A stretch of DNA of 32,000 nt from Trichlorobacter lovleyi SZ. GTDB taxonomy: Bacteria > Desulfobacterota > Desulfuromonadia > Geobacterales > Pseudopelobacteraceae. The notes beneath the pieces are model-generated. The model was not told where the DNA came from. It made no database searches and saw nothing but the letters and a program-made list of their open reading frames with translations. The DNA is taken from contig NC_010814.1 in NCBI RefSeq assembly GCF_000020385.1, positions 2,580,001 through 2,612,000 on the forward strand. The letters run 5' to 3'. How positions within the stretch are numbered: the stretch's first letter is position 1; each line of letters begins with the position of its first letter. This document shows positions 1 to 20,938 of the stretch, one piece after another. Both the position numbers and the translations under genes were made by a program.

Positions 1-830
1 AGGTCATCGCTAACCACATGGCAGCAGCGGGCAATCGCCTCCAGCATCCCCAGCGGCGGCTGTTCGCAAAAGCAGCCGCACAGCACCACCCTGATCTTGT
101 CCTGCTGTTGGCGCTGCCGCATGGCCAGCAGGGGCAGCACCCGCTCCAGCAGACGGTTATGCTCTCCGGGCGGCAGCAGGCTCCCCACAGCGGTCAGCAG
201 GTAGTATTCATCCAGCGCCAGCTTTCGGGGTTCACGGGATTTCAGGGCCTGCAGCTCACGCAGCAGCCTGCGATGACGGTTATAGACAGCGATTGAGCGC
301 CGCACCGCCTCCAGCTCCAGCGGTCTGCCGGTCACCTCGCTCACCACGGCGGCAAGGCCGGCGTACTCCTGCCGCAGATAGTTCTCAGCAGCGGGAGCGG
401 TACTGTTTTGCGGCAGGTAGAGCGTCCGGCAGGGGGTACTGAAATTGCGGGACCAGATGGCAGGCAGGTTACGGGCCGCATCACAGATGGAAGGGACAAT
501 CAACAGATCCAGGCTGAGATCGCCCCCCTCCACCAGATTAAAGACCTGCTTGACCACTGAACAGAGGTAGGAACCGAAATGGGCGCCACCCGCCCCGCCG
601 TTGCCGGTGGTACAGCCCAGCTTCACCGCCAGCATCCCGGCAGCATCGGCAATCTCTTCAGGCATGTAGACCTGAAAATGCCCCAGCACCCTGCCCCCCT
701 GCTCCTGCCAGAGCCGGAGCGTGGGGAAGGTTGCATCGCAGAGCAGCTCCCGGCAGGCATCAAGGATCTCTTCCAGGGATGCATCGCAGGGCAGGCTCTG
801 ACCGAAAAAGAGAGGGGCACGCAGGTCCAT
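1..830 (-). CDS. 2-hydroxyacyl-CoA dehydratase / benzoyl-CoA reductase-type subunit (HGD-D family), partial; C-terminus lies left of the window
   Basis: Absent from the ORF track because it runs off the edge. Hand translation of the minus strand from ATG 830-828 gives MDLRAPLFFGQSLPCDASLEEILDACRELL..GHFQVYMPEEIADAAGML..LLIVPSICDAARNLPAIW..RVVLCGCFCEQPPLGMLEAIARCCHVVSDD, open to position 1. There is an in-frame stop upstream at 909-911. The Cys-containing motifs resemble HgdB/FldC/BcrB-type subunits. Confidence 0.7.
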   Translation of the reverse strand, partial: MDLRAPLFFGQSLPCDASLEEILDACRELLCDATFPTLRLWQEQGGRVLGHFQVYMPEEIADAAGMLAVKLGCTTGNGGAGGAHFGSYLCSVVKQVFNLVEGGDLSLDLLIVPSICDAARNLPAIWSRNFSTPCRTLYLPQNSTAPAAENYLRQEYAGLAAVVSEVTGRPLELEAVRRSIAVYNRHRRLLRELQALKSREPRKLALDEYYLLTAVGSLLPPGEHNRLLERVLPLLAMRQRQQQDKIRVVLCGCFCEQPPLGMLEAIARCCHVVSDD

Positions 831-867
831 GGGCGAGCCATAGCACTCTTGAGCGGCAGGGTCAAAC

Positions 868-898
868 AGAAACCTGCCGGTTGCACTTTCAGGTTTCT
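868..898. promoter_or_regulatory. inverted repeat AGAAACCTG-N13-CAGGTTTCT in the divergent intergenic region
   Basis: The 9-bp arms at 868-876 and 890-898 are exact reverse complements. They lie between the divergent starts at 830 (-) and 959 (+). Candidate operator or 5'-UTR hairpin; function not demonstrable from sequence. Confidence 0.3.
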
Positions 899-958
899 TT
901 GCTATGATTCAAGCACCATTCAGGGCGTAGCACCCCACACTGTAAAGGAGAACACACC

Positions 959-1195
959 ATGGCCGCGACCGTAGATGAGATGAAAGAGCTGATGCTGCAG
1001 ATCGGGATGGACAAAGAACTGGTAGCCGGGCTTGACCCTGTTGCGCCGTTGGCAGGACAGGGGGTTGATTCAGTGGACTGCCCCGCCTTTGCGGTGGCAC
1101 TGGAAAACAGGTACAAGGTCAAGATATCCGACTCCGATTCCATGCAACTGAGGGCCATCAACGACTTTGTCGCCTTTGTGAACCGGACGGCATGA
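959..1195 (+). CDS. acyl carrier protein (ACP-1)
   Basis: 78 aa, acidic, with phosphopantetheine-attachment-like motif GQGVDSVDCPAF. AAGGAG RBS upstream. Its stop overlaps the next start (ATGA at 1192-1195). Confidence 0.8.
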   Translation: MAATVDEMKELMLQIGMDKELVAGLDPVAPLAGQGVDSVDCPAFAVALENRYKVKISDSDSMQLRAINDFVAFVNRTA

Positions 1196-2241
1196 CCCTG
1201 CGACAGGAAGCGATCAGGCGACTGGCAGCGGACAGCCGTCCGCTGCCGGAGACCGAGCCGTTCTCGACACGACTGTATCAGCCGGAAGACGGCTACGGGG
1301 TAACACGGCTGTTCTATGCCGTATATGGCGACGGCTATCCGGTCGACACCTTCTACCTGCCGGAACAGCTGACCGAAGAAAACCGGGCCGGCCGGATCAG
1401 GAGTGTCGTGGCCCGGACTGAGGACGGCCAGGTGGTCTCGCACATCGCCTTGTACCGCAGCTCTGCCCCCAACCCGGACCTGTATGAGTACGGCCTGGGG
1501 CTCACCCTGCCCGCCTACCGTGCCAGCCTTGCCTTTGCCCGCTGCAACAGCCTGTTGCTGTCACTGGTGGAAGATGGCGTTGTAGACTCTTTTTTTGGCG
1601 AGGCGGTCTGCAACCACATCATCACCCAGAAGCTTACCAGACAGAGCGGTGCCATAGAGACTGCGCTTGAAGCGGCACTGATGCCGGCCCGTGCCTACGA
1701 GGCAGAGCAGAGCGCAGACGGCAGGGTCGGCTGCATCATGTCATTCAAGGTCTGCCGTGACCGGATCCGGCCCCTCTGCATTCCCTCCTGTTACCACCAG
1801 GAACTGACATTCGCCATGGAGGGACTGAAGCTTGGGCGTGAACTGATTCCTGACAACGGCCAGCTCTCAGACGAGGGCTCACAGTTTGACACCGTCCGGT
1901 TTGACCATGCCGGTGTTGCCCGTTGTACCATCACCGCCCCGGGCAGAGACCTTGTCCCGCGGCTGTTGTCACTTGAAACAGAACTCCGGCAGGCCGGGTA
2001 TGCCGTGTTGCAGTGCTTTATTCCGCTGGGTGACAGCCGGGGCGCCGCAGCCGCCACCCTGCTGCAACAGGCCGGTTTTTTTCTGGGCGGTTTTCTGCCG
2101 GCCTGGTTTGGCGAGGATGGCCTGCTGATGCAAAAGCTGTTTATTGATCCCGGCTTTGAATCTCTGAAGCTGCATTCGGATCGGGCCCGCACGCTTGCCG
2201 CACTGGTGCGGAACGACTGGCAGCGCAGCCTGGAAGGATAG
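1192..2241 (+). CDS. two-domain GNAT-like acyltransferase, paralogue A
   Basis: 349 aa. N-terminal GNAT-like pattern YQPEDGYGVTRLFYAVYGDGYP..VVARTEDGQVVSHIAL..EYGLGLTLPAYR, central FGEAVCNHIITQK, C-terminal AGFFLGGFLPAWFGEDGLLMQKLF. By eye more than half of the residues are identical to the ORF at 4699-5802. Confidence 0.55.
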   Translation: MTLRQEAIRRLAADSRPLPETEPFSTRLYQPEDGYGVTRLFYAVYGDGYPVDTFYLPEQLTEENRAGRIRSVVARTEDGQVVSHIALYRSSAPNPDLYEYGLGLTLPAYRASLAFARCNSLLLSLVEDGVVDSFFGEAVCNHIITQKLTRQSGAIETALEAALMPARAYEAEQSADGRVGCIMSFKVCRDRIRPLCIPSCYHQELTFAMEGLKLGRELIPDNGQLSDEGSQFDTVRFDHAGVARCTITAPGRDLVPRLLSLETELRQAGYAVLQCFIPLGDSRGAAAATLLQQAGFFLGGFLPAWFGEDGLLMQKLFIDPGFESLKLHSDRARTLAALVRNDWQRSLEG

Positions 2242-2245
2242 TACG

Positions 2246-3526
2246 ATGGAACTGAGACTGGAGCTTGAACCGGCACGGATGCCGATGGCGGTCGCCTTTG
2301 CAGAAACTGCGGCACAGGGGGCCGGACTGGGCAGCCATGAGACCGCCATGCTGGCGCTCAGTGCCGAAGAGCTGTTCCTTGCACTCTGCAGCAGCATGCC
2401 CGGCGCTGAGCTGGTGGTCGGCTTTCTTGACCGGCGCTATGCGGTTGATCTGCTGTTCCAGATCCCCCGGCCACCGGCTGATCTGCGCATCTTCAACATC
2501 ACGGCCCGACCGGACCATGATTCCGAGGAAGGGCTGGCCGGCATGGGACTCTATCTGGCATCACGGGCCTGTGACCAGTTCAGTATCCAGCAACTAGCGT
2601 CAGGCAGCTGGAAGATCATGCTGCGCAAGGAGCGGAGCTACCCGCCCCATCCCGCTGCGCCGCTAACCGCACATGGAGAGGCCGTTGCATGGCAGATTGC
2701 CGCCGTGCCGGCACCGGATGCGGTCAAGCAGCTCTCAACACTGATCGGCAACAGCTATGCCGCCCTCCAGTTTCCCGAGACCTTCACCCCGCCGGGGCGG
2801 CTGCTGGACAAACTGGCCAGCAAGGAATACGGCGTCATCCTGGCACAGGACCCGCAGGGAGAACTGGCCGGCGGCCTGATCTGGCGTACCGGTGGCGGCA
2901 AGGTGGTGGAATGCTTCGGCCCCTACCTGCGCAGTCCTGCTACGGACGGCACCCTGGCAACAGCACTCTGCGAAAAGGTCGCCGAACAGTTCGGCCGCAG
3001 CGACCGGCTCGGCCTGGTGCTCTACGCCCCCCAGCAACCGCCCTCCACCGCCGGCTTCGAGGCTGCCGGACAGCTTGAGACACCCGGCGGCACGGTCTGG
3101 ACCGGCTACCGGATGCTGGCCGAGGAGTTTGGCGCCGACGCCTGGGTCCCGCAGGAGCTGCTGCCATTCTATCAGGAATGCTGCGCCGGCATGGTCCTGA
3201 CACGAAATATCCGTGCCTGCCAAGATGACGGCGAAACCGGCAACGGACTGACCCTGTTCGCTACCCGCATTGACCGTTCAAACGGCATGGCCCTGCTGAC
3301 GCCGCTTCTGGTGGGGCGCGATGCAGCAGACGTACTGCAGGAGCACCTGCAGCTGCTTGAGCAGGAGCAGTTTTCCGCCATCTACTGCACCCTGGACACC
3401 GGGCACCCGTTTGACGCCCTGCTTGCCCCCCACCTGTTGAGCCACGGGTTCCTGCCCCGGATTCTGGTCCCCTGGGGCGGCAGCGGTGACCTGATACAGC
3501 TGCACCGGATCAGGGGCAGCCGATGA
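2246..3526 (+). CDS. fusion: RsbW/SpoIIAB-like (HATPase-like) N-terminal module plus GNAT-like module (paralogue D)
   Basis: Start moved to ATG 2246 (MELRLELEP..), which has GGAAGGA 8 nt upstream; the 2195 start would overlap the previous gene. The N-terminal ~130 aa (AVAFAETAAQGAGL, ALSAEELFLAL, EEGLAGMGLYLASRACDQFSI) resembles anti-sigma serine-kinase folds but lacks an obvious N-box Asn. The C-terminal part repeats the paralogue architecture and ends HGFLPRILVPWGGSGDLIQLHRI. Confidence 0.45.
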   Translation: MELRLELEPARMPMAVAFAETAAQGAGLGSHETAMLALSAEELFLALCSSMPGAELVVGFLDRRYAVDLLFQIPRPPADLRIFNITARPDHDSEEGLAGMGLYLASRACDQFSIQQLASGSWKIMLRKERSYPPHPAAPLTAHGEAVAWQIAAVPAPDAVKQLSTLIGNSYAALQFPETFTPPGRLLDKLASKEYGVILAQDPQGELAGGLIWRTGGGKVVECFGPYLRSPATDGTLATALCEKVAEQFGRSDRLGLVLYAPQQPPSTAGFEAAGQLETPGGTVWTGYRMLAEEFGADAWVPQELLPFYQECCAGMVLTRNIRACQDDGETGNGLTLFATRIDRSNGMALLTPLLVGRDAADVLQEHLQLLEQEQFSAIYCTLDTGHPFDALLAPHLLSHGFLPRILVPWGGSGDLIQLHRIRGSR

Positions 3527-4692
3527 ATCTGGATACGCTGATGCCGCAGTATGTGCGGCAGTTTGAGACCTACATCCCCTCACCACCGGATGACGAGTTG
3601 AAACGGATGTTCGGGATCGAACGCCTGATCCGTCTGAACAATAACGAGAATCCGCTGGGACCACCCCCGGCAGTGGCCGCATTGCTGCGCAGCCTTGACC
3701 CGGCCCTGGTGCCCCGTTATCCCAGCGGTGACTGCTTTCACCTGCGTGAAAAGCTGGCCGCCCAGCTGGGGCTTACCCCCAAGCAGCTGCTCTTCGGCAA
3801 TGGCGCCAACGAGGTAATTGCCTTCGTGATCAAGGCCTTTTGCGAACAGGGCGACAACATCGTCACCGCCGACCGCACCTTTGCCGTCTATGAGTGGATT
3901 GCCCGTTTTTCCGGTCTGGAAGCCAGGCTTGCGCCGCTGAACGACTTCGGTTTTGATGAAGAGGCGCTGCTTGCACAGGTGGATCGCCGCACCAAGCTGG
4001 TCTTCATCTGCAACCCCAACAACCCCACCGGCAGCTGGTGGAGCCGTGACCGGTTGATCAGTTTTCTGGAACGGTTGGGCCCCGATCACCTGGTGGTACT
4101 GGACGAGGCCTATTGCGAATTCATGGATCAGCCCGACTACCCTGACGGCATCTCGCTCCTGTCCCGTTTTTCCAACCTGATCATATTCCGCACCTTCTCG
4201 AAGATGTACGGTCTGGCAGGCTTACGGATCGGCTACCTGGCAGGGGTGGAGCAGGTGGTGGACAGTATCCGCAAGACCTGCATTGTCTACTCGGTCAACA
4301 GCATTGCCCAGGTGGCGGCCCTGGCCGCCTTTGGCGATCAGGAGTTTATCCGCGCAACCCGCAGTATGGTGCGGGAAGGGCAGCAGATGCTGGCAGAGCT
4401 GTGCAGCACCCTGCAACTGCCGTTGCTGGCCGGTGACTGCAACTTTGCCATGATCAGGCTGCCGTTCAGCGACACCCTGGCCTACCGTTCGCTGATGCAA
4501 CAGGGGGTCATGATCCGCACCATGACCGCCTTCCGCTTTCCCGGCTGGATCCGGGTCAGCATCTCCACCCGTGACGAGATGCGGCTGTTCTGTGAGGCCC
4601 TGTCGCGGCTGGTTCACTCACGCACTGACCGGAACCCGCTGGCCAGGGCCTACGGCGTCAGCGGCTCCATGCCGCACATTTCGGCGGTTTAA
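3523..4692 (+). CDS. PLP-dependent class I/II aminotransferase, histidinol-phosphate/aromatic aminotransferase (HisC) family
   Basis: 389 aa with NNNENPLGPP, CNPNNPTG and the PLP-lysine motif FSKMYGLAGLRIGY. ATGA overlap with the previous gene. Confidence 0.85.
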   Translation: MNLDTLMPQYVRQFETYIPSPPDDELKRMFGIERLIRLNNNENPLGPPPAVAALLRSLDPALVPRYPSGDCFHLREKLAAQLGLTPKQLLFGNGANEVIAFVIKAFCEQGDNIVTADRTFAVYEWIARFSGLEARLAPLNDFGFDEEALLAQVDRRTKLVFICNPNNPTGSWWSRDRLISFLERLGPDHLVVLDEAYCEFMDQPDYPDGISLLSRFSNLIIFRTFSKMYGLAGLRIGYLAGVEQVVDSIRKTCIVYSVNSIAQVAALAAFGDQEFIRATRSMVREGQQMLAELCSTLQLPLLAGDCNFAMIRLPFSDTLAYRSLMQQGVMIRTMTAFRFPGWIRVSISTRDEMRLFCEALSRLVHSRTDRNPLARAYGVSGSMPHISAV

Positions 4693-4698
4693 CTCCCT

Positions 4699-5802
4699 AT
4701 GGAGATGACGCATGCCAAACAGGCCGCCCCCGCTGCAGCGGCAATGACGACCAGGGAGGCGGCGATCAGGCTGTTGGAAGGGGATACCCGGCCCTGGGCT
4801 GAGGGAGAACCGTTCACGGTACGCTTTTATCAGCCAGAGGACGGCTATGGCGTGGCCCGCCTGATCTACGCCGTGTATGGAAACGGCTACCCGATCGATA
4901 CCTTCTACATCCCTGAACAGTTGACTGAAGAAAACCGGGCCGGCCGGATCAAAAGTGTGGTTGCCCGCACCAGCAGCGGAGAGGTGATCTGCCATTTCTC
5001 GCTCCACCGCAGCTCCGCCCCCAATCCCGACATGTATGAAGCAGGCCTGGGGCTGACCCATCCGGCCTATCGAGCCTGCGGAGCCTTTGAACGCTGCTTC
5101 ACGCTGTTGTTCTCGCTGGTTGAAAACAATAGCGTCACGGCAATTTTCGGCGAGGCGGTCTGCAATCACACCATCACGCAGAAGATGGCTGAACCGGCAA
5201 AACTCGTCGAAACGGCCCTTGAAGTCGATCTGATGCCTGCCGACACCTATGCCAAAGAACGGGCTTCAGATGGCAGGGTCAGTTGTCTGATGTACTTCAG
5301 AATCGGTGCAGATCAACGGCGGCCGCTCTACATACCGGACTGTTATGCTGCTGAGATCAGGTTCATGATGGAAGGGATCACGCTTGAACGTGAGCTGCTC
5401 GGCAGCAGCGGGTCACAGCCCCTGCCTGCAGACTCAGAGCTGCAGACAGAGTCCTTCAGCTCGTCCGGCGTCTGCCGCTGCAGCATCATCAGACCGGGAC
5501 AGGATCTTGCCGGACGCCTTGCGGCACTGGAAGACGACCTTCGTTCCCGGGGGTATGCGCTGCTGGAGTGTTTTGTGCCGCTCGGCGTCCCGGAAGCGGC
5601 ATATTCCGTTGCGGCCCTGCGCACGGCCGGATTTTTTCTGGGTGGTTTTTTACCGTGCTGGTTCGGCGACGACGGCCTGTTGATGCTGAAGCTGTTCGGA
5701 ACAGCGGGCTTTGACAGCATCAAGCTCTTTTCTGAGCGGGGAAAGGCGATTATGGCGATGGTACGGGCGGACTGGGCACGGGCCTGCGGTCACGGCCGGT
5801 AG
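4699..5802 (+). CDS. two-domain GNAT-like acyltransferase, paralogue B
   Basis: Motifs YQPEDGYGVARLIYAVYGNGYP, FGEAVCNHTITQK, AGFFLGGFLPCWFGDDGLLMLKLF. The alternative start at 4744 (MTTREAAIRLL) aligns with the N-terminus of paralogue A (MTLRQEAIRRL). Confidence 0.55.
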   Translation: MEMTHAKQAAPAAAAMTTREAAIRLLEGDTRPWAEGEPFTVRFYQPEDGYGVARLIYAVYGNGYPIDTFYIPEQLTEENRAGRIKSVVARTSSGEVICHFSLHRSSAPNPDMYEAGLGLTHPAYRACGAFERCFTLLFSLVENNSVTAIFGEAVCNHTITQKMAEPAKLVETALEVDLMPADTYAKERASDGRVSCLMYFRIGADQRRPLYIPDCYAAEIRFMMEGITLERELLGSSGSQPLPADSELQTESFSSSGVCRCSIIRPGQDLAGRLAALEDDLRSRGYALLECFVPLGVPEAAYSVAALRTAGFFLGGFLPCWFGDDGLLMLKLFGTAGFDSIKLFSERGKAIMAMVRADWARACGHGR

Positions 5803-6668
5803 TCGTAGACCCCCTGCCCGCTCTTTCTCCCCAGCCGTCCCCTGGCAACATAGTCCCGCAGCAGCGGGGAGGCGGCATATTTGTGGTTGTCGATACCGTT
5901 TGCCAGGGTCTCCGTCGCCGCCAGAATCACATCAAGCCCGATCATATCGGCCAGGGCCAGCGGCCCCATCGGATGGTGGGCCCCCAGCTGCATGGCCGTA
6001 TCAATATCCTCAGCAGCGGCAATACCGTCCTGCAGCATACCGAACGCCTCGTTGATCAGGACACAAAGCAGCCGGGTGATGATAAAGCCGGGCTGGTCCT
6101 TGCTGCAGACCGACTGCTTGCCCAGGGCAGTCACCATCTGCCGGGCAATGTCGATGGTCCGGGGCGATGTCTCTGATCCGGCAATCAGCTCAACCAGCTC
6201 CATCAACGGCACCGGATTCATGAAATGCATACCGATGAACCGTTGCGGGATGCCTGAAGCGGCTCCCAGGGCGGTGATGGAGAGGCTGCTGGTACTGCTG
6301 GCCAGGATCGCCTCTTTGCCCAATACAGCTCCAAGTTCCGCAAGCAGCTCACACTTGGCTGCCATCTGCTCGGCAATCGCCTCGATCACCAGATCACAAT
6401 CAGACAGAGCAACAGGCTCATGACAATTGCTGATTCTGGCACGGATCACGGTTGGTTCCTCGCCGATCAGCCCCTTTTCATGCAGCTTGGCAAGGCTGGT
6501 CTCGATCCTCCCCGCGGCATCAGCAAGGGCTGACGCATGCCGGGCATACAGCCGTACCCTGAAACCTGCCATTGCAGCCAGTTGCGCAATGCCGGCCCCC
6601 ATACTGCCTGCCCCTGCCACACCGATCAGCGGTATCTCCCTGTTCATGACCATCTCCCGGAGCAGCAT
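5790..6668 (-). CDS. NAD-dependent 3-hydroxyacyl-CoA dehydrogenase (Hbd/FadB-like)
   Basis: Rossmann motif IGVAGAGSMGAGIAQ and HFMNPVPLMELVELI. A likelier start is ATG 6647 (MNREIP..), preceded by GGGAG. The 3' end overlaps the convergent gene by 13 nt. Confidence 0.85.
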   Translation of the reverse strand: MLLREMVMNREIPLIGVAGAGSMGAGIAQLAAMAGFRVRLYARHASALADAAGRIETSLAKLHEKGLIGEEPTVIRARISNCHEPVALSDCDLVIEAIAEQMAAKCELLAELGAVLGKEAILASSTSSLSITALGAASGIPQRFIGMHFMNPVPLMELVELIAGSETSPRTIDIARQMVTALGKQSVCSKDQPGFIITRLLCVLINEAFGMLQDGIAAAEDIDTAMQLGAHHPMGPLALADMIGLDVILAATETLANGIDNHKYAASPLLRDYVARGRLGRKSGQGVYDYRP

Positions 6669-6751
6669 TGCATTTTGGCACTGCTGCTGTATGCTGTCAG
6701 TTGCATGGCGTTTCGGCCGGCATTACCATTTCAATACCTCTGGGGAGCTCG

Positions 6752-7705: not shown

Positions 7706-7718
7706 CAACCGTTCCAGA

Positions 7719-8057: not shown

Positions 8058-8090
8058 GTTTCAGCACCTCTCGGTATGCTTGGTAGTGAT

Positions 8091-8675
8091 TCAACCGGCA
8101 ATACGACCCTTAAGCCGGGCATACTGTTCAGGCGTATTCATATCCAGTAGCACGGCCTGATCTTCAGACGGCAGCTCCAGCATCTGCCAGCCACAGTACA
8201 GGCTGCGCAACCCTCCGGCACCGTCAGCGGACAGTAGTTCCTGCTGTCGTCTCATCCGTAGCAGCGGAGGATGCCCACGCTTGCCACAGAATGTTGGAAT
8301 CACCCCATCAACAGCGGGATTCTGCTGCAGTGCGGCGAGCAGGCCGGTCAATGTTGCCGGGCTGACCAAAGGGATATCCACCGGCTGCACGAAAAAGGCA
8401 TCCGTTGCAGGTCCAAGCGCTGCAACCCCGGTCTGGATTGATGAAAACATCCCGTTTTCCGGCGCCGGATTCCGTACCAGCTCAACCGGCAGACACAACT
8501 GGACCAGAGCGGCATGATTCTGCCCGCTCACCACAACAATCTGCCCTATCCCGACGGCCTGATAGCTGCTGACGATCCGTTCAAGAACAGGCTTCCCATT
8601 CAGATCAAGCAGCGCCTTGTCACTGCCCATCCGGCTGGAAAAACCGGCGGCCAGAATAATGGCAGCGCTTTTCAC
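8091..8675 (-). CDS. MobA/MocA-like molybdenum cofactor nucleotidyltransferase
   Basis: N-terminal AAIILAAGFSSRMGSDKALLDLNGKPVLERIV (NTP_transf_3-like). ATGA overlap with the xdhC-like gene. Confidence 0.8.
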   Translation of the reverse strand: MKSAAIILAAGFSSRMGSDKALLDLNGKPVLERIVSSYQAVGIGQIVVVSGQNHAALVQLCLPVELVRNPAPENGMFSSIQTGVAALGPATDAFFVQPVDIPLVSPATLTGLLAALQQNPAVDGVIPTFCGKRGHPPLLRMRRQQELLSADGAGGLRSLYCGWQMLELPSEDQAVLLDMNTPEQYARLKGRIAG

Positions 8676-9595
8676 CCTTTACTCCGCCTGAAGGCAATCA
8701 GTTCAGCCAGGATACTGACCGCAATTTCTGCCGGGGTTTCCGCGCCAATGACCAGCCCCACCGGGCAATGCACCCGTTCCAGATTGGCATCGCTGACACC
8801 GGTAGCACGCAGTTGATTAAACAGCTCTTCCCGTTTGCGTTTGCTGCCCACCATGCCGATATACCCGGCAGCGCTTGCCAGGGCCTGTTCCAGCACCACC
8901 CGGTCATGCCGGTGGCCATAGGTAACAATCAGCACGGACGTAGCCGGTGTAATCTGTTGACACACCAGACAGTCGTTAAACCCTGTAACCAGAACGGTTT
9001 TAACAGGCGCAGCAAAGCGGCCCGAGTCAAGCAGCTCAGCCCGGTCATCAAGCACGCTGACCTTGAAACCTGCAGTTATTGCCATAGGTGCCAGAGCCTG
9101 GGCAATATGCCCTGCCCCGCAGATCAGCAGCCCCGGAGCAGGCTGCAAGGGAATGCTGTAGCAATGCAGGGCATCACCAGCCGGTTGATCAACAGACCAG
9201 CAGGCCTGGCCGTTATCCCTTAAAACAACCAGCAGGTTGCAGCCCCTGCCCGCTTCCAGACCCGCTGCTGCTGCAGTAAAGACAGGGACCACATCAGGAG
9301 ACAGCCGTACCAGCAGCAGGGTAAGGCTGCCACCACAGGGCATACCATCCTGCTCCGGCAGTAACTGAAATGAACGGACAACGCCATGACCGTCCTGCTG
9401 CAGTTGACCCAGGCTGGCAACAACCTGCTGTTCCAGGCTGCCGCCCCCCACGGTGCCACAGCAGCTGCCATCCCGACGGAGCAACAGCATGGCCCCTACC
9501 CCACGGGGAGCAGAGCCTCGCCGTGCAACAATCAGGGCCAGTGCGCCTGCCCCGGTTGCTGCCACCTCGTTCAGTATCTGCAACGCCTCAGACAT
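8672..9595 (-). CDS. XdhC/CoxI-family molybdoenzyme maturation factor
   Basis: 307 aa. N-terminal XdhC-like segment (ALALIVARRGSAPRGVGAMLL..GTVGGGSLE) plus a Rossmann-like LLICGAGHIAQALAPMAITAGFKVSVLDDR. Confidence 0.8.
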   Translation of the reverse strand: MSEALQILNEVAATGAGALALIVARRGSAPRGVGAMLLLRRDGSCCGTVGGGSLEQQVVASLGQLQQDGHGVVRSFQLLPEQDGMPCGGSLTLLLVRLSPDVVPVFTAAAAGLEAGRGCNLLVVLRDNGQACWSVDQPAGDALHCYSIPLQPAPGLLICGAGHIAQALAPMAITAGFKVSVLDDRAELLDSGRFAAPVKTVLVTGFNDCLVCQQITPATSVLIVTYGHRHDRVVLEQALASAAGYIGMVGSKRKREELFNQLRATGVSDANLERVHCPVGLVIGAETPAEIAVSILAELIAFRRSKG

Positions 9596-10742
9596 TTTGC
9601 TTCCTTACCAGCAGCACCAGCCCGGCTGCCAACAGCAGCGCACCGGCAGCCGCACCAAACAGAAGCGGATACCCGCCCTGGGGTAGCAGCCAGCCACCAG
9701 CCAGCGGCCCCAGAAAAAAGCCGCACTGCAGCATCAGCAGGCCAAGGTTCTGATTAAGCCCCCGTGTTTCAGGCTGTGACAGATCAAAGATCAGGGCATT
9801 CAAAAGCGGCATCACCACGCCCCAACCGATACCGCACAGCACCGCCAGTGCCAGCAGGATGGTAACATTGGCTGCAGCCAGGATCAAACCGGTGCCTGCT
9901 GCAGACAGTACCAGAAAGACCATGTTCATGCGTCGCTTGTCAAAGCGGTCAAACAGGCTGCCCCCAAACAGGCGGACCAGCATCATCATCACCGTGGCAA
10001 CCGTAAAAAACAGGCCGCTGTTGGCCAGCCCGGCTGCCCGGCCAAACCCCTTTAGATAGAAGAAGGTGGCAGCATACCCGGCGTACAGCAGCACCGTGGC
10101 GGCAAACAGCAGCAACAGGCTCCGGTCGGCCAGGCTGTTTTTGATCCCGGCAAAGGATGTCCCGCTGGCCGGTTCCTGTTCCTGGGGAAAACGGGGCAGC
10201 AGCCAGAGCAGCGCCCCGGCCAGCAGGGCCAGCAGGGCCGACCAGCGGATCACTCCACCCAGGGCTGCCGGCGCTATCTGAAACAGATCAAACAGGAGCG
10301 GCACCACGGCGTAGGGCACCAGCCGCACCAGCGAGATCCAGCCAAAGGCGCGGCCACTCATCTCGCGGGGGATGCAGAGCACAAACAGCGGCATGATTGC
10401 CGCCACCACACAGATAAAGCCGGCCCCCTGCAGCAGTCGGGCCAGCGTAAAGGCCAACTCACTGCTACAGGCTCCCTCCATGATCAGCGCAGCTGCAAGG
10501 ATCAGGGAACCGGCCAGCAACCAGCGCCGGGCAGTACGGGCGGTAATCAGCGGGGTAATAAACGGTTGTACAATCAGGGCGGCCAGGGCATCAGCCCCCA
10601 GGATGAAACCGGCTGAGGCAGCAGGCATGCCCAAAGAGGTCAGGTATTCCTGCAGGGGAAAGAAGATGGCAACAATGGTTGAAACAGCCAGAAACTGGCT
10701 GCAGAGCAGCAGAAAGGGGCGGGTCAAGAGCGGGTTTGCCAT
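9588..10742 (-). CDS. MFS transporter
   Basis: 384 aa, almost entirely hydrophobic with roughly 12 helix-length segments. Overlaps both neighbours (8 nt and 1 nt). Confidence 0.8.
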   Translation of the reverse strand: MANPLLTRPFLLLCSQFLAVSTIVAIFFPLQEYLTSLGMPAASAGFILGADALAALIVQPFITPLITARTARRWLLAGSLILAAALIMEGACSSELAFTLARLLQGAGFICVVAAIMPLFVLCIPREMSGRAFGWISLVRLVPYAVVPLLFDLFQIAPAALGGVIRWSALLALLAGALLWLLPRFPQEQEPASGTSFAGIKNSLADRSLLLLFAATVLLYAGYAATFFYLKGFGRAAGLANSGLFFTVATVMMMLVRLFGGSLFDRFDKRRMNMVFLVLSAAGTGLILAAANVTILLALAVLCGIGWGVVMPLLNALIFDLSQPETRGLNQNLGLLMLQCGFFLGPLAGGWLLPQGGYPLLFGAAAGALLLAAGLVLLVRKQNV

Positions 10743-11572
10743 CAGGCAACCAGCCTGAACAACAGGTTGCCTGCCACAGTCCGGCGATAGTCGGCAGTGG
10801 CCCGGATATCGTCAATCGGCTGCACCGCCTGCTGCACCAGAGCTGCTGCGTCCTGCAGGGTTGCTTCCGACAACGGCTTATTGATCAGGACCGCTTCAGC
10901 CCCGGTACAACGCAGCACGGTCGGGCCAACACTGCCCCAGGCAAAGCGGGCCTCAAGCACGGTGCCGTCATCAGCCAGCCGCAGCATGGCCGCCAGTGAG
11001 GCCACGGCAATGGCCAGGGATTTACGGCGGCCCACCTTTTCAAAACACTGGATGTTCCACTGCTGTGCAGGTGGCAGGATAATCCGGCTGATGAGCTCCC
11101 CCGGTTGCAGCAGGGTCCGGCGGGGACCGCTGATGAACGCATCAATCGCCACGATCCGACTGCCTGTTGCAGAACGCAGCTCAAGCCGGGCATCCAGCAG
11201 ATACAGGGCCGGCAGGGAATCAGCAGCCGGTGAGGCGGTCACGATATTACCGCCGATACTGGCCATGTTCCTGATAGCCGGGCCGCCCACGGTTGAGGCA
11301 GCCTGGGTCAGCAGGGGGTAGCGTTCTTTCAGCAGAGGATTGCGCACGATGGAACCAAACGTGACAGCAGCGCCGATACTGACGCTGTTGTCCGGCAGTT
11401 CTTCAATCATTGATAGCTCGGCAAGCCTCTCCAAAACGATGATTGACTGATGTTCCTGCGACCCATGACGCTGCGCCACCAGCAGGTCAGTCCCGCCGGC
11501 CATGATCCTGGTATCCGGCTGCTGATTCAGCAGGTTAAACAGCTCTTCAACAGTATTTGGAAAAAGAAGCAT
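10742..11572 (-). CDS. FAD-binding (medium) subunit of a xanthine dehydrogenase/CO dehydrogenase-family molybdenum hydroxylase
   Basis: IMAGGTDLLV and ASIGGNIVTASPAADS motifs. The track start at 11590 is a GTG inside the upstream gene, so ATG 11572 (MLLFPNTVEEL) is preferred. Only two Cys residues, so no extra Fe-S insertion. Confidence 0.85.
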   Translation of the reverse strand: MLLFPNTVEELFNLLNQQPDTRIMAGGTDLLVAQRHGSQEHQSIIVLERLAELSMIEELPDNSVSIGAAVTFGSIVRNPLLKERYPLLTQAASTVGGPAIRNMASIGGNIVTASPAADSLPALYLLDARLELRSATGSRIVAIDAFISGPRRTLLQPGELISRIILPPAQQWNIQCFEKVGRRKSLAIAVASLAAMLRLADDGTVLEARFAWGSVGPTVLRCTGAEAVLINKPLSEATLQDAAALVQQAVQPIDDIRATADYRRTVAGNLLFRLVA

Positions 11573-11579
11573 TAAGCTA

Positions 11580-12071
11580 TCACCCTTCACCCTTCACCCT
11601 TGCAGCTTTCTCAACCGCATCCACAATCCTGACATAGCCGGTGCAGCGGCAGAGATTGCCGGACAACCCTTCCTTGATCTGTTCCCGGCTCAGCGGTTCA
11701 CCCTGCCGCAGCAGCGCCAGCGAGGCCATCTCCATGCCGGGAATACAGTAGCCGCACTGCACCGCCCCTTCTTCAGCAAAGGCGGCCATCAGGGTGCGCC
11801 CCTCGTCAGTCTGCTGCAGCGCCTCAACCGTTTCCACCTGCCGTCCCTCAAGCTGGGCCGCCAGCATCAGGCAGGCCAGTTTCGGCAGACCATCCACCAG
11901 GATGGTGCAGGCCCCGCATTCACCGGTGCCGCAGCCTTCCTTGCTGCCGGTCAGACCCAGATCTTCACGCAGCAGATCGATCACCCGGCGCTCGGCAACG
12001 GTCTCAAGCACCGTTGCCTGCCCGTTCAGGGTAAAACGGATGGTCCGGTTATGCTGTAACATGGCTGTCAA
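11580..12071 (-). CDS. (2Fe-2S)-binding small subunit of a molybdenum hydroxylase
   Basis: GCGTGECGACTILVDG, CGYCIPG and NLCRCTGY cluster motifs. Confidence 0.9.
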   Translation of the reverse strand: MTAMLQHNRTIRFTLNGQATVLETVAERRVIDLLREDLGLTGSKEGCGTGECGACTILVDGLPKLACLMLAAQLEGRQVETVEALQQTDEGRTLMAAFAEEGAVQCGYCIPGMEMASLALLRQGEPLSREQIKEGLSGNLCRCTGYVRIVDAVEKAARVKGEG

Positions 12072-12291
12072 TGTAGGCGATCATCTCACCGACCGTCTTG
12101 GTCGCCACGGCATCCTCTTTGCTGATCGTGAGACCAAAGGCCTCCTCGGTCAGCACCAACAGTTCCATCATTGCCAGGGAATCCAGACCGAGGTCGCTGC
12201 GCAGATCAGCAGCAGGCACAATCTTCTCCACAGCCACCTTGCCCTTGCCTGCCTTCTGGATCAATCCCTGTACCTTCTCAAATCTCGTCAT
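12049..12291 (-). CDS. acyl carrier protein (ACP-2)
   Basis: 80 aa with DLGLDSLAMMELL motif. ATGA overlap with the upstream GNAT-like gene. Confidence 0.8.
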   Translation of the reverse strand: MTRFEKVQGLIQKAGKGKVAVEKIVPAADLRSDLGLDSLAMMELLVLTEEAFGLTISKEDAVATKTVGEMIAYIDSHVTA

Positions 12292-13319
12292 TCCTGTTCT
12301 CCTTTCCTTTGTACCGCTTCACGATCCGAGCGGATGTCATGCAGCATCTTTCTGGCAACGCCAGTGTAGAGCTTGATACCGTCATAATCCGGCTCTTTGC
12401 CGAACAGCTGTTGCAGCATCACGCCGTCATTGCCAAACCAGCGGGGGTACAGCCCCCCGATAAAGAACCCCCGTTGCCGCAGCTGAGCCACAGCCTCGCT
12501 GATGCAGGGCAGCGCCGTTGAAACAATCAGCTGGAGACAGACTGTTTTCCGTTCCCGGCTTTTGACCAGAATCCGGTCCAGAAACATCCCCCAGTCTTCT
12601 CCGATTACACTGACGGAAAAACGCCAGGTTCCGGCCTCTTCAAACCAGTGGTCAGTGGCGACCGTCTCCCCATGCCGGGGCAGTGGCGAAGTACCGGGCA
12701 GCAAAATACGGGGACGCAGCCGTTCATAGATCCCGTGCAAAAAGGCACGGTACTGTTCAGGCAGGTAACAGGGGCCTTGCGGATCAGACAGTTCATACAA
12801 CTGCACCACACAGGCCACCCGTTCCGTTTCAGGGCGATGCTCGGAGAAACTGGCGCCATCAAGCAGGTCAAGCGCCAGGCCGCACTCCTGAAACCCCAGC
12901 TTGACCGCCCCCACCTGGGTAAAATAGTGATGGCAGACCGCTTCTCCAATGATGCCGTCAGACTGCAGACCGGGCAGATTTCCCGGCTGCAGGTAATGCT
13001 GCATCAGTCCCCAGCCCAGTTCATCCTTGCCGCCACCGGGCACAACCACCAGATTTCCCCCTTCCCAGAGGTTCGGGTTGGGGGCGCATTTAAAGAACGA
13101 GACATAGCCGATTGCGTTCCCTTTGCTGTCAAACGCAAGTGAGGCGGCAAGCCGTCCGGCCCTGATCTCTTCCATGACCAGGGCGGCATGGTAGACATAC
13201 GGTACCGGAAAGCCGTCGCCATAGACCGATCTGAAGACCGTGGCCACCTCTGCTGCATTGGAAGCGTCTACGGGTTGTATGGTGTAGCCTGTTTCAGGCA
13301 TGACGTCCTTTCCTGCCAT
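12288..13319 (-). CDS. two-domain GNAT-like acyltransferase, paralogue C
   Basis: 343 aa, divergent from A and B but with the same landmarks: VATVFRSVYGDGFPVPY, IIGEAVCHHYFTQV, RGFFIGGLYPRWFGNDGVMLQQLF. Flanked on both sides by ACP genes with 1-nt and 4-nt overlaps. Confidence 0.5.
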   Translation of the reverse strand: MAGKDVMPETGYTIQPVDASNAAEVATVFRSVYGDGFPVPYVYHAALVMEEIRAGRLAASLAFDSKGNAIGYVSFFKCAPNPNLWEGGNLVVVPGGGKDELGWGLMQHYLQPGNLPGLQSDGIIGEAVCHHYFTQVGAVKLGFQECGLALDLLDGASFSEHRPETERVACVVQLYELSDPQGPCYLPEQYRAFLHGIYERLRPRILLPGTSPLPRHGETVATDHWFEEAGTWRFSVSVIGEDWGMFLDRILVKSRERKTVCLQLIVSTALPCISEAVAQLRQRGFFIGGLYPRWFGNDGVMLQQLFGKEPDYDGIKLYTGVARKMLHDIRSDREAVQRKGEQE

Positions 13320-13561
13320 CAGGAGACGACGGTCCCCTCGATAAAGGCCAGTATACCGCCAATAGTGGTCACCTTTGCGGCCTCCTCAAGCCCGACCGTG
13401 ATGGCGAACGTATCCTCCACCAGCACGATCAGCTCAGACTGCGCCAGGGAATCCAGCCCCAGGTCTTCATTCAGCCGGGCCTCCGGTGTCAACACCGCCT
13501 CCGACAGCCGCCCCTTGCTGACCTTGACAACCAGTTGTTGCAGTTTTTCCATGGTGTTCAT
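13319..13561 (-). CDS. acyl carrier protein (ACP-3)
   Basis: Start set at ATG 13561 (MNTMEKLQQ), 7 nt after GGAAGGAG. Motif DLGLDSLAQSELI. Confidence 0.8.
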   Translation of the reverse strand: MNTMEKLQQLVVKVSKGRLSEAVLTPEARLNEDLGLDSLAQSELIVLVEDTFAITVGLEEAAKVTTIGGILAFIEGTVVS

Positions 13562-13587
13562 CGTCCATCTCCTTCCACCCTTGAAAT

Positions 13588-14589
13588 TCACTCCTCAACG
13601 GAGTGCCAACGCACGAGAGCCGATCCCCAACTGACGCCGCCACCGAATCCGGTCAGTACCAGCCGGTCGCCATGCCTGATCCGTCCCGCATGCAGGACGT
13701 TATGCAGAGCGATCGGGATTGAGGCGGCCGAGGTATTGCCGCACTGCTCGAGATCTATCACGATTTTATCCATCGGCAGGTCCAGACGCCCGGCTGCAGC
13801 CTCAATAATCCGGCGATTGGCCTGGTGGGGGATGAACAGATCAATATCCTCCAATGACAGTCCTGCCTTCTGTATGACCCGCATGGCCGAATTGCCCAGG
13901 ACCCGCATGGCAAACATAAAGACCTGCTGTCCATCCATCCGTACATACTGCAACTGTTCGGCCAGGGCCTCAGGGGAAGCCGGAAGCCGGCTGCCGCCTG
14001 CCGGAATGACAATCGCCCCATGTTCAGAACCGATGCTGCCCGCATCAGTGGCCAGCAGCCCGTAGCCGTCAGGCACAGCACCGAGCACCACGGCACCGGC
14101 ACCGTCACCGAACAGGATCGCGCTGTCACAGTCCGCAGGGCTGGCAACCTGTGACAGCACCTCGGCGCCGATCAGCAGCACCTTGGGGCAGAACCCGCAG
14201 GAGACGGCATGGCACGCAACCACCAGCCCGTAGACAAACCCCGAGCAGGCAGCAGACAGATCAAAACAGGCTGCCGCTGGTATACCCAGCGCCCCCTGAA
14301 CAATGGCTGCCGTGGCAGGCATCCGGTAATCAGCGGTGGAGGTGGCCATGATCACCATACCGATCTCATCCGGTGTGGTTCCTGAGGCCGTAAGTGCCTG
14401 ACGGGCCGCAGCAATGGCCAGATCAGAACAGGCCTGTCCGGGAGCAACAATCCGGCGGTTATGAATGCCGGTCCGCTCATAGATCCAATCGGTTGTGACC
14501 CCGAAGTGCTCTGCCAGTTCCTGATTGCTCAAAACATTGTCCGGCAGATAGGCGCCGGTCCCCAGAATGCCTGCCCCGATCGTTATCAT
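13588..14589 (-). CDS. 3-oxoacyl-ACP synthase III (KAS III, FabH family), copy 1
   Basis: 333 aa: GTGAYLPDNVLSNQEL, DLSAACSGFVYGL, IPHQANRRII, CGNTSAASIP, GFGGGVSWGSALVRW. Confidence 0.9.
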   Translation of the reverse strand: MITIGAGILGTGAYLPDNVLSNQELAEHFGVTTDWIYERTGIHNRRIVAPGQACSDLAIAAARQALTASGTTPDEIGMVIMATSTADYRMPATAAIVQGALGIPAAACFDLSAACSGFVYGLVVACHAVSCGFCPKVLLIGAEVLSQVASPADCDSAILFGDGAGAVVLGAVPDGYGLLATDAGSIGSEHGAIVIPAGGSRLPASPEALAEQLQYVRMDGQQVFMFAMRVLGNSAMRVIQKAGLSLEDIDLFIPHQANRRIIEAAAGRLDLPMDKIVIDLEQCGNTSAASIPIALHNVLHAGRIRHGDRLVLTGFGGGVSWGSALVRWHSVEE

Positions 14590-14852
14590 ACGCCCCTCTC
14601 GCCACCCACGTGCGGCAGCCGCTCCATAACCAGATCAACACAGTCTCCCACAGACCGCAGCCTGAAAAGATCTGCATCATCGATTGCAATTGTCAAGCGG
14701 TCTTCCAGGGCAAGCACCAGCTGCACAAACCGGATTGAGTCAATGCCAAGATCACGCTGCAGGTGTTGCTGTGCCTGAAATACCGGGCCGCTGCCGGGCA
14801 GCAGCTCATGCAGAATGGCGCTAACCTCAGCACAGGCCTGCTCCCTGTTCAT
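14586..14852 (-). CDS. divergent acyl carrier protein (ACP-4)
   Basis: Start set at ATG 14852 (MNREQACAEV), after GAGGGAGGA. Motif DLGIDSIRFVQLVLALE. ATGA overlap with fabH copy 1. Confidence 0.65.
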   Translation of the reverse strand: MNREQACAEVSAILHELLPGSGPVFQAQQHLQRDLGIDSIRFVQLVLALEDRLTIAIDDADLFRLRSVGDCVDLVMERLPHVGGERGV

Positions 14853-14883
14853 CGCTATCCTCCCTCGGCTCATAGAGCGGACA

Positions 14884-16173: not shown

Positions 16174-16222
16174 ACAGGTAGCCCTCTGTCAGCCCGCAGG
16201 AATAAACGGTACGCCAGGTATC

Positions 16223-18294: not shown

Positions 18295-18345
18295 TCCCTC
18301 TTCCCAAACAGCAGAAGGAACAGCACACTGTCTGTTATAGCCCTC

Positions 18346-20937: not shown

Positions 20938-20938
20938 A

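Follow-up and report, generated by a model that had tools for sequence, protein, structure and literature searches.

A 32,000-nucleotide stretch of Trichlorobacter lovleyi SZ (positions 2,580,001 to 2,612,000 of contig NC_010814.1; hereafter the window, to which all coordinates given without a locus name refer) carries a gene cluster that is conserved across many oxygen-avoiding bacteria. The cluster combines small acyl carrier proteins (ACPs), 3-oxoacyl-ACP synthases III (KAS III), a molybdenum (Mo) hydroxylase and four proteins, here called UnkA to UnkD, that contain two GCN5-related N-acetyltransferase (GNAT)-type domains in series. We favor, with moderate confidence, the interpretation that this region represents, in T. 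lovleyi, a modular thiotemplate-like pathway that is widespread among strict anaerobes; the cluster probably makes a small acylated molecule, and the acyl groups moved by the GNAT proteins probably derive from aromatic acids or amino acids. The tandem-GNAT proteins, of about 340 residues, constitute a new family, and are predicted to act as carrier-protein-dependent acyltransferases. An earlier note, made from the sequence alone, had singled out the 15 kb between positions 1 and 14852 as one biosynthetic system. Its view of a dedicated cluster stands, but the cluster is a composite of two modules, K and M, which also occur apart, and the proposed boundaries were too narrow, as the system reaches the Mo large subunit gene (23.4-25.7 kb) on one side and ligase and benzoyl-CoA reductase (BCR)-like genes to the left of the window on the other. 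The genes are the following:

1-829, minus strand: HGD-D family subunit, 5' part (PF06050, E 1.1e-39), first gene of a divergent BCR-like operon that runs on leftward
959-1195, plus strand: ACP1 (PF00550, E 4.4e-5; motif GVDSV)
1192-2241, plus strand: UnkA, tandem GNAT of the A/C type (homology to UnkD)
2246-3526, plus strand: UnkB, RsbW/SpoIIAB-like N-domain followed by a tandem GNAT-like region (AlphaFold and Foldseek)
3523-4692, plus strand: HisC-family pyridoxal-phosphate aminotransferase (PF00155, E 2e-53)
4699-5802, plus strand: UnkC, tandem GNAT of the A/C type (58% identity to UnkA)
5790-6668, minus strand: 3-hydroxyacyl-CoA dehydrogenase (PF02737 and PF00725)
6749-7705, plus strand: FabHa, a KAS III (PF08545 and PF08541)
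7719-8057, minus strand: STAS-domain protein of the anti-anti-sigma type (PF01740, E 2.8e-13), last gene of a long minus-strand operon, directly downstream of MocA
8091-8675, minus strand: MocA-like molybdenum-cofactor nucleotidyltransferase (PF12804, E 2e-39)
8672-9595, minus strand: XdhC-type maturation factor (PF13478 and PF02625)
9588-10742, minus strand: major facilitator superfamily (MFS) transporter (PF07690, E 6e-33)
10742-11590, minus strand: Mo hydroxylase FAD-binding medium subunit (PF00941 and PF03450)
11580-12071, minus strand: Mo hydroxylase 2Fe-2S small subunit (PF01799 and PF00111)
12049-12291, minus strand: ACP2 (PF00550, E 4.8e-12; motif GLDSL)
12288-13319, minus strand: UnkD, tandem GNAT of the D type, with an ACP gene on either side (AlphaFold and Foldseek)
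13319-13561 (or 13591), minus strand: ACP3 (PF00550, E 6.9e-8; motif GLDSL)
13588-14589, minus strand: FabHb, the KAS III of module K (PF08545 and PF08541)
14586-14852 (or 14873), minus strand: ACP4 (PF00550, E 5.8e-10; motif GIDSI)
23369-25657, minus strand: Mo hydroxylase molybdopterin-binding large subunit (PF02738, PF20256 and PF01315)

Several proteins of the window are identical to T. lovleyi SZ entries in the series from ACD96118.1 (ACP1) to ACD96147.1 (Mo large subunit). Since a search of a plasmid collection returned nothing but a 43-base chance match, the locus is considered chromosomal. The gene identities that had been read from the sequence held up when profiles and folds were compared. 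All four small open reading frames (ORFs) pass the gathering score of PF00550 (PP-binding) and carry the serine motif D-S-(L/V/I) reported for them, the two KAS III enzymes are complete, and the aminotransferase, the 3-hydroxyacyl-CoA dehydrogenase, the HGD-D subunit, the small and medium Mo hydroxylase subunits, XdhC, MocA and the MFS transporter were all recovered by Pfam; the ACP and GNAT-like assignments likewise survived profile and fold tests. The gene list of the earlier note was incomplete, and missed the STAS gene at 7719-8057, the Mo large subunit, the RsbW-like domain of UnkB and the ligase of the left flank. Start and stop codons overlap as ATGA at 1192, 3523, 12288 and 14586 and as TGATG at 13319, in agreement with that note, but the overlap of the XdhC stop with the MocA start (8672-8675) is GTGA, with a GTG start, and not ATGA. 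Also as reported, the window ORFs scanned contain neither FabF/B nor a FabD-type acyltransferase, nor do they contain a thioesterase, an adenylating enzyme or a megasynthase for polyketides (PKS) or nonribosomal peptides (NRPS).

The proteins that define the cluster are the tandem GNATs. UnkA, UnkB, UnkC and UnkD had no Pfam or NCBIfam match at E <= 0.01, and in UniProt the GNAT-like proteins bear the name 'N-acetyltransferase domain-containing protein'. UnkA and UnkC share 58% identity and UnkA aligns with UnkD over the full length (BLASTP E 2e-39). Thus the proposal of four paralogous GNAT-like proteins is essentially correct; UnkA, UnkC and UnkD are clear paralogues, and UnkB is a divergent, three-domain relative. 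A sequence search of the PDB with UnkD found nothing; its AlphaFold model (pLDDT 93.9, built on 44 homologues) shows two GNAT-type domains in series and then a long C-terminal helix. Foldseek matched this model to many GNAT structures with a probability of 1.0 and target TM scores of 0.65-0.75, each match covering one domain, while the best full-length match, a histidine acetyltransferase, was poor (TM 0.28-0.30). In addition, weak matches to PF00583 were detected in 19 of 44 homologues (best E 2.4e-4). UnkA and UnkC are placed in the GNAT superfamily by their homology to UnkD, and the AlphaFold model of UnkB (pLDDT 83) consists of an N-domain and a tandem GNAT fold that is matched to GNATs by Foldseek.

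In an alignment of 92 family members the residues E86, V128, Q135, R167, P187, G240, F295, D298 and G299 are invariant, and C129, H131 and T134 are kept in 90/92, 91/92 and 66/92 sequences, respectively; UnkA retains the invariant Glu, the Cys-x-His pair, the Gln and the Arg of the family. E86 of the UnkD model lies on strand beta4 and C129-x-H131 at the beta5-alpha4 junction, and these two positions are the usual sites of catalytic residues in GNATs. No column between residues 89 and 125, which include the beta4-alpha3 loop, reaches 85% conservation in the same alignment, indicating that motif A (Q/R-x-x-G-x-G/A), which binds the CoA pyrophosphate, is absent. Together with the overlaps with ACP genes, where the stop/start codons couple ACP1 to UnkA and ACP3 to UnkD, and with the ACP fusions described below, the missing CoA-binding motif points to carrier-bound donors.

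Relatives were collected by a scan of one genome per GTDB species, in which 204 were found and 77 loci kept. The kept loci belong to Geobacter, Pelobacter, Desulfuromonadaceae, Syntrophobacteraceae, Syntrophorhabdaceae and Smithella, to Desulfobacula, Desulfobacter vibrioformis and Solidesulfovibrio, and to many Negativicutes, some Bacillota and one Methanoculleus genome bin. The homologues of UnkD are all unnamed or 'hypothetical' and come mostly from metagenome-assembled genomes of Desulfobacterota. A profile search of 1.84 billion cluster representatives (50% identity) recovered 2,302 members with an E value of at most 1e-3; for 384 the E value was 1e-30 or lower. The block recurs in dozens of genomes of two phyla; the earlier note had regarded synteny in several genomes, with no characterised homologous cluster, as support for novelty.

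Mapping by tblastn and by all-against-all ORF clustering of the loci resolved two modules. Module K consists of a KAS III, an ACP and a D-type GNAT: a KAS III gene lies within 2.5 kb of 51/62 D-type genes, and the same number, 51/62, have an ACP gene within that distance. Module M consists of UnkB, the aminotransferase, the large, 2Fe-2S and FAD subunits of the Mo hydroxylase, the MFS transporter and an A/C-type GNAT, the gene of which has the Mo large subunit within 10 kb in 27/41 cases and a KAS III nearby in only 3/41. Among 81 loci both modules were present in 14, module K alone in 30, module M alone in 15 and neither in 22, the last group being probably due in part to short fetched contigs; both modules recur in Desulfobacterota and in Negativicutes. 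By family, the tandem GNAT was found in 78 loci, ACP in 46, KAS III in 41, the aminotransferase in 36, the FAD subunit in 34, UnkB in 33, the 2Fe-2S subunit in 30, the Mo large subunit in 26, the MFS transporter in 22 and an AMP-forming ligase in 21, followed by STAS proteins (17), an RsbW-like kinase (14), a PP2C phosphatase (13), an NMT1-like protein (13) and a short-chain dehydrogenase/reductase (10). No further conserved family across the loci emerged from the all-against-all clustering. Those unlabelled ORF clusters that were checked by position lie antisense to known genes, and most of the others are assumed to be alike.

Fusions in the relatives link the same families more closely. In several relatives UnkD carries the equivalent of ACP3 as an N-terminal fusion, and in distant members of the family D-type GNATs are also fused to an NRPS-type adenylation domain (TIGR01733, 427 bits). 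The latter fusions occur in Bacillota and Negativicutes as two-gene units that stand by themselves (L086, 7733-10526; L087, 7735-10532), in which the gene of an 80-residue ACP precedes that of the tandem GNAT-adenylation protein and no ketosynthase or Mo enzyme is nearby. One family member heads a C-A-PCP module, and three others (P0200, P0141 and P0163) are fused to a 4-coumarate-CoA-ligase-like domain of the PYP type, to a PAL/TAL-like ammonia-lyase or to both, P0200 (1322 residues) combining ligase, GNAT and lyase in a single protein. Moreover, a 1130-residue fusion of 2-oxoacid dehydrogenase E1 alpha, E1 beta, a lipoyl domain and a C-terminal KAS III was found in four Geobacter-type loci (L001, 6345-9737; also L013, L014 and L017), where it occupies the ACP4-FabHb position. 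This arrangement implies that the starter is handed over directly from the lipoyl arm to the ketosynthase, bypassing CoA, and lends support to the amino-acid-derived starter that the earlier note had suggested. Genes of the benzoate-CoA-ligase family (TIGR02262, 432-466 bits, cut-off 375) were found directly upstream of ACP1-UnkA in L016 and L019 and adjoining the BCR-like genes of L085 and of L088, a locus of the T. lovleyi type; one such gene, for an aryl-acid ligase, lies just beyond the left end of the window. PKS domains were found neither in the window nor in the related loci examined.

Both KAS III enzymes keep Cys112, His244 and Asn274 when aligned to E. coli FabH. FabHb exceeds the TIGR00747 cut-off (350 bits against 292), and FabHa lies just under it (288 bits) and over that of NF006829 (324 bits against 249). 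FabHb keeps the catalytic triad and Arg249 and has Met in place of Phe87, the residue that restricts primer size in E. coli FabH; in the KAS III enzymes of the clusters this position is Met, Ala, Thr or Gly, which suggests larger primers. FabHb and the KAS III domain of the L001 fusion share 75% identity, and the position held by ACP4 in T. lovleyi is held by the E1-lipoyl domains in relatives. FabHa is a lineage-specific accessory gene, and so is the 3-hydroxyacyl-CoA dehydrogenase, which is particular to the T. lovleyi lineage and was found beside FabHa solely in L077 and L088 among the fetched loci. Housekeeping type II fatty-acid synthesis was considered for these genes and rejected, as FabD, FabG, AcpP and FabF are not encoded in the window and the neighbors are GNAT-like proteins and a Mo hydroxylase; the earlier view of a dedicated carrier-tethered system is supported.

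The Mo hydroxylase is likewise shared with relatives. Its large subunit is 69% identical to the L001 orthologue, which sits inside the L001 cluster, and its 2Fe-2S subunit is 73% identical to the orthologue from the same locus. The best PDB match of the large subunit is 4-hydroxybenzoyl-CoA reductase alpha (1rm6, E 1.2e-91), with nicotinate dehydrogenase and aldehyde oxidoreductase close behind. Nevertheless, a true 4-hydroxybenzoyl-CoA reductase was rejected, because the scores are under the cut-offs (alpha 411/995, beta 127/405, gamma 161/258) and the FAD subunit, with two Cys among its 282 residues, lacks the 4Fe-4S insertion of the beta type. A true xanthine dehydrogenase (PucCDE or XdhABC) was rejected on its equivalog scores as well (pucD 506/784, XdhB 227/310, pucE 166/254). 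Scores so far below the NCBIfam equivalog cut-offs and the missing insertion assign the enzyme to an uncharacterised subfamily of the xanthine oxidase (XO)-family hydroxylases. The MocA-like protein similarly matched NCBIfam models of the MocA/DVU_1551 type under their cut-offs. In T. lovleyi the large subunit gene is 11 kb away from those of its 2Fe-2S and FAD partners; since relatives keep it beside them, the arrangement looks like that of a cluster split by insertions. The aminotransferase is 48-59% identical to its orthologues in 36 loci.

At the left end, the subunit that had been described as HgdB/BcrB-like does belong to the HGD-D family. It is 75% identical to an L085 protein whose best NCBIfam match, under the cut-off, is benzoyl-CoA reductase subunit C. 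Where the earlier note expected HgdA/HgdC-type partner genes further to the left, the related loci L085 and L088 have an operon of the BCR type, which comprises two genes of the HGD-D family and two for BcrAD-type ATPases, with the ligase gene following in L088; the best NCBIfam matches of these four are BcrC, BcrB, BcrA/BzdQ and BcrD, all under the cut-offs. A class I BCR has two HGD-D and two ATPase subunits, while dehydratases have a single activator gene. A plain HgdAB dehydratase was therefore rejected for the left-end gene, although not decisively, given the two ATPase and two HGD-D genes of its close relatives. The T. lovleyi-type left flank of L088 (2035-5803) also contains three genes with no Pfam match ahead of the ligase gene. 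Judged by eye, their products are a protein of 444 residues that resembles a porin, a lipoprotein of 63 residues and an internally duplicated, secreted protein of 241 residues; when two unknown proteins of this flank were searched against PDB sequences, nothing was found.

A regulatory component is suggested by the N-domain of UnkB, which Foldseek matched to SpoIIAB (1til_E, E 1.8e-6) and RsbW (6m36, TM scores of 0.80-0.86). In an alignment with reference sequences, also used for the STAS proteins, this domain has Ala in the column of the N-box Asn and the G1-box region is missing, and the serine of the phospho-site column is conserved in the STAS proteins. The RsbW-like domain of UnkB is thus probably not a kinase. 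BLASTP of UnkB against the RsbW-GNAT protein P0093 was not significant. STAS genes were found in 17 related loci, and a second copy in the window lies at 27335-27670. In 13-15 loci of both phyla module M is accompanied by a cassette of STAS protein, RsbW-like kinase, NMT1/THI5-like binding protein and PP2C phosphatase, the last of which bears Cache and HAMP sensor domains (for example L031, 3947-7628, within or beside module M). The separate RsbW-like kinase and the PP2C phosphatase were seen in related loci alone, with no sigma factor linked. These observations would be consistent with UnkB being the output of a partner switch.

Read from the gene identities, folds, conserved residues, synteny and fusions described above, the identity of donors and acceptors, the order of reactions, the product and its regulation may be pictured as follows. 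The tandem GNATs would take their acyl donors from the adjacent small carrier proteins and not from acyl-CoA. Within module K (ACP4, FabHb, ACP3, UnkD and ACP2) the KAS III would join a starter to malonyl-ACP and form a short 3-oxoacyl-ACP, the starter being delivered by a carrier arm, lipoyl in relatives and possibly ACP4 in T. lovleyi; UnkD would then hand the 3-oxoacyl group to a free amine or to a substrate on a second ACP. Within module M (ACP1, UnkA, UnkB, aminotransferase, UnkC, Mo hydroxylase and MFS transporter) the ligase could load an aromatic-type acid onto ACP1, or make its CoA ester, and UnkA could move the ligase-activated aryl-type group onward, with the HisC-like aminotransferase providing a 2-oxo acid or an amine partner. 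Helped by XdhC and MocA, the XO-family hydroxylase would introduce a hydroxyl group derived from water and need no oxygen, the MFS protein would carry product or precursor across the membrane, and the STAS protein probably controls UnkB via its RsbW-like domain.

A more specific version of this scheme can be advanced only tentatively, and we regard it as rather doubtful. It holds that the tandem GNATs are thiotemplated ligases that replace the NRPS condensation domain, passing a Cys-His acyl-enzyme between carriers (ACP3 to UnkD to ACP2; ACP1 to UnkA) and building an aromatic beta-ketoacyl-derived amide, perhaps a metal chelator or a signal, that the Mo enzyme hydroxylates without oxygen, with UnkB switched by the STAS module. 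If the preferred reading of a modular carrier-based pathway is right, the clusters would represent a large unexplored class of biosynthetic clusters among strict anaerobes that range from Geobacter relatives and syntrophs to sulfate reducers and Negativicutes, and a new fold solution for carrier-protein-dependent acyl transfer, and they would include an oxygen-free hydroxylation of a natural product and a direct hand-over from the lipoyl arm of a 2-oxoacid dehydrogenase to a KAS III. Furthermore, the output of partner switching would be an enzyme instead of a sigma factor, possibly the first case of direct enzyme control. T. lovleyi SZ is a cultured and sequenced strain, so the reading is testable.

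Several observations weigh against a carrier-based biosynthetic pathway. Many genomes with module M have no detectable KAS III or ACP nearby (present for 3/41 and 6/41 of the A/C-type genes), so that the donors of the A/C-type GNATs may be CoA esters or other compounds. The alignment of UnkB with the UnkA/C/D family is co-linear but weak (hhalign E 0.0017, probability 16%), and the conserved Cys may act as a general acid instead of a nucleophile. Genes for a phosphopantetheinyl transferase, a malonyl transferase and a thioesterase are missing from the window, the displaced Mo large subunit may mean that the cluster of T. lovleyi is not fully functional, and the score of the aminotransferase is that of a true histidinol-phosphate aminotransferase (TIGR01141, 301 bits against a cut-off of 276.55). 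Finally, the ligase, the BCR-like enzyme, the Mo enzyme and the 3-hydroxyacyl-CoA dehydrogenase also resemble enzymes of anaerobic aromatic degradation.

The last point leads to the question of whether the cluster serves catabolism, degrading an aromatic acid or aromatic amino acid by a variant of the anaerobic benzoyl-CoA route in which MFS uptake, CoA ligation, (de)hydroxylation by the Mo enzyme, ATP-dependent BCR-like ring reduction and beta-oxidation-like steps follow each other and the GNATs and ACPs are peripheral. The membership of the ligase in the benzoate-CoA ligase family, the two HGD-D and two BcrAD ATPase genes of the left flank (with BcrB, BcrC, BcrA/BzdQ and BcrD as best matches), the PDB match of the Mo large subunit to 4-hydroxybenzoyl-CoA reductase, the 3-hydroxyacyl-CoA dehydrogenase in the cluster and the BCR-like genes near module M also in Desulfobacter vibrioformis would all fit such a route. 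However, the matches to BCR and 4-hydroxybenzoyl-CoA reductase are far under the equivalog cut-offs, the FAD subunit lacks the 4Fe-4S insertion that defines the latter enzyme, and BCR-like genes are missing from most module M loci. Four ACPs, two KAS III enzymes and four acyltransferases are more than a degradation pathway would normally require, and lineage-variable accessory genes with partner-switching regulators are more typical of specialised biosynthesis, so that a catabolic role appears quite unlikely. Remodelling of the envelope, with the cluster making N-acyl amino acids (aminolipids), fatty acids with unusual starters or a similarly unusual membrane lipid in place of a secreted small molecule, is unlikely but has some points in its favor: a KAS III with private ACPs and an amino-acid-derived starter follows the logic of branched-chain fatty-acid priming, into which the E1-lipoyl-KAS III fusion fits, the replacement of Phe87 by smaller residues suggests larger primers, a lipoprotein gene adjoins the operon, and FeeM, an acyl-ACP-dependent enzyme of the GNAT fold, makes N-acyl amino acids (PMC11685415). 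Yet the cluster contains no elongating ketosynthase, no reductase/dehydratase set and no O-acyltransferase, a Mo hydroxylase and an aryl-acid ligase are unexpected for membrane lipids, and the D-type GNAT is found fused to NRPS adenylation domains too.

Those fusions also bear on the suggestion that UnkD is a GNAT-type malonyl-ACP decarboxylase of the CurA/GphF kind, which would prime the KAS III with acetyl-ACP and make module K a minimal polyketide-like starter module. GNAT-like decarboxylases are listed in PMC11685415, and the GNAT-ACP pairs and ACP-GNAT fusions recall PKS loading didomains. The conserved His and nearby Thr (H131 and T134, counts as above) and the KAS III that comes immediately after are in line with such a role. 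Nevertheless, priming would be pointless where the D-type GNAT is fused to amino-acid adenylation domains or accompanied by an ACP but no ketosynthase, and there is no PKS module; to our knowledge, an invariant Cys is not a feature of GNAT-like decarboxylases. We thus consider a decarboxylase improbable. Regulatory acylation of proteins by the GNATs, for instance of the AMP-forming ligase (cf. Pat and AcuA) or the STAS protein, is very unlikely. Members of the family are fused to or located beside AMP-forming ligases, UnkB has an RsbW-like protein-binding domain in clusters with linked STAS genes, and the acetylation of AMP-forming ligases by GNATs is well known (PMC11619455 and PMC11255334), but the ACP-gene overlaps, the ACP fusions and the missing CoA-binding motif point to carrier-bound donors, and four paralogues with two ketosynthases would be excessive for regulation. 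That unrelated operons merely adjoin each other by chance is extremely improbable. Both strands are used and the T. lovleyi arrangement is rearranged and interrupted; however, co-occurrence of the families, seen in 14 loci that have both modules and dozens that have one, extends over Desulfobacterota as well as Negativicutes, and this synteny effectively excludes a chance adjacency.

A modular carrier-based pathway, which we prefer over these alternatives, has partial counterparts among known systems. Initiation of type II PKS by ZhuH, ZhuG and ZhuC of the R1128 pathway employs a KAS III, a priming ACP and an acyltransferase, and module K also comprises a KAS III, a dedicated ACP and an acyl-transfer enzyme that would give a short beta-ketoacyl-ACP; in contrast to R1128, module K has no KS-CLF partner and its acyltransferase is a tandem GNAT and not FabD-like. 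The priming of branched-chain fatty acids proceeds via a transaminase and the Bkd 2-oxoacid dehydrogenase to FabH. The conversion of an amino acid via a 2-oxo acid into an acyl thioester that primes a KAS III would be the same in the cluster, whereas the fusion of the relatives would bypass CoA, ACP4 takes its place in T. lovleyi and elongation enzymes are missing from the window. 2-Furoyl-CoA dehydrogenase is an XO-family molybdenum enzyme that acts on aryl thioesters. With this enzyme and 4-hydroxybenzoyl-CoA reductase (1rm6) the Mo hydroxylase shares the three-subunit organization of molybdenum cofactor, FAD and 2Fe-2S proteins, the XdhC and MocA helpers and an adjacent aryl-acid ligase. 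The N-domain of UnkB has the fold of RsbW/SpoIIAB, and STAS protein, RsbW-like kinase and sensor PP2C accompany the cluster in 13-17 loci, as in the RsbW/SpoIIAB and RsbV/SpoIIAA systems; unlike RsbW and SpoIIAB, this domain is fused to an enzyme, has no sigma factor partner and seems to lack the ATP-binding Asn and the G1 box. Enzymes of the GNAT fold that form N-acyl products, some of them aromatic signals, from thioester donors other than acetyl-CoA share the fold, but the cluster proteins are twice their size and have other conserved motifs.

Carrier-dependent GNATs such as SbzI, GdvG, FeeM and CurA have been described (PMC11685415). The SbzL/SbzG/SbzI system of altemicidin (PMC11685415), in which a ligase loads a free-standing carrier and a GNAT transfers the acyl group to an amine, resembles the order ligase, ACP1, UnkA in relatives. 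However, SbzI is a single-domain GNAT from an actinomycete, while the cluster proteins are tandem GNATs with a Cys-x-His pair, and the donor in T. lovleyi is probably aromatic or a beta-ketoacyl group. The closthioamide ligase CtaG joins substrates on two carriers, one of them loaded with an aromatic acid, via an enzyme-bound intermediate (PMC12865890). Like the CtaG/CtaH/CtaE system (PMC12865890), which is a non-canonical, stand-alone system of an anaerobe, ACP3-UnkD-ACP2 with its Cys/His pair would fit a two-carrier scheme, but CtaG has a papain-like fold and not a GNAT fold, and a two-carrier mechanism of UnkD is an inference. Carrier-dependent GNATs and KAS III starter modules are therefore already known kinds of enzymes. 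By contrast, the tandem-GNAT family, the architecture of the cluster, the E1-lipoyl-KAS III fusion and the RsbW-like-GNAT fusion appear undescribed in the resources searched. No characterised homologous cluster or family model was found there, which agrees with the failure of the earlier note to name a pathway with the same gene set, and the literature search found no paper on the cluster or its T. lovleyi genes, the Geobacteraceae genome papers examined containing no mention of them.

Besides the genes of the cluster itself, the window has a number of minor features. An Rfam scan of the whole window detected no riboswitch and no other RNA family, and a consensus scan gave 4 promoter-like sites compared with 4.1 in shuffled sequence. 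Terminator-like sites were more frequent than in shuffled sequence (22 against 12.6, standard deviation 3.6); they lie mostly within genes and are thus uninformative. The large subunit gene is separated from the operon by the gene of a DUF5122 lipoprotein, by a two-component pair and by a low-GC stretch (18000-23300, GC 0.47-0.53 as compared with about 0.60 elsewhere). Genes in the low-GC stretch encode, besides a cystatin-like and a DUF2007 protein, a nucleotidyltransferase (NTP_transf_8), a deaminase of the cytidine/dCMP type and a protein whose match to HEPN (RiboL-PSP) is weak and sub-threshold. The stretch looks like an inserted island; flanking repeats were sought and none found, and PADLOC gave no match for its genes.

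The gene for the DUF5122 beta-propeller lipoprotein (14884-16173, minus strand) shares the strand of ACP4, stops 10 bases upstream of it, and contains six 32-nt repeats at a spacing of about 175 nt, which are taken as propeller-blade repeats. A 472-residue ORF on the opposite strand (14815-16233, plus) is its antisense shadow. In L012, a Geobacter genome bin, an orthologue with 76% identity is placed inside the cluster, with ACP2 on one side and the 2Fe-2S subunit on the other. Beside the Mo large subunit gene, the segment 25661-28044 (minus strand) encodes a response regulator, a histidine kinase, the second STAS protein mentioned above and an EF-hand protein, and this group of genes may form a regulatory neighborhood for the displaced large subunit.

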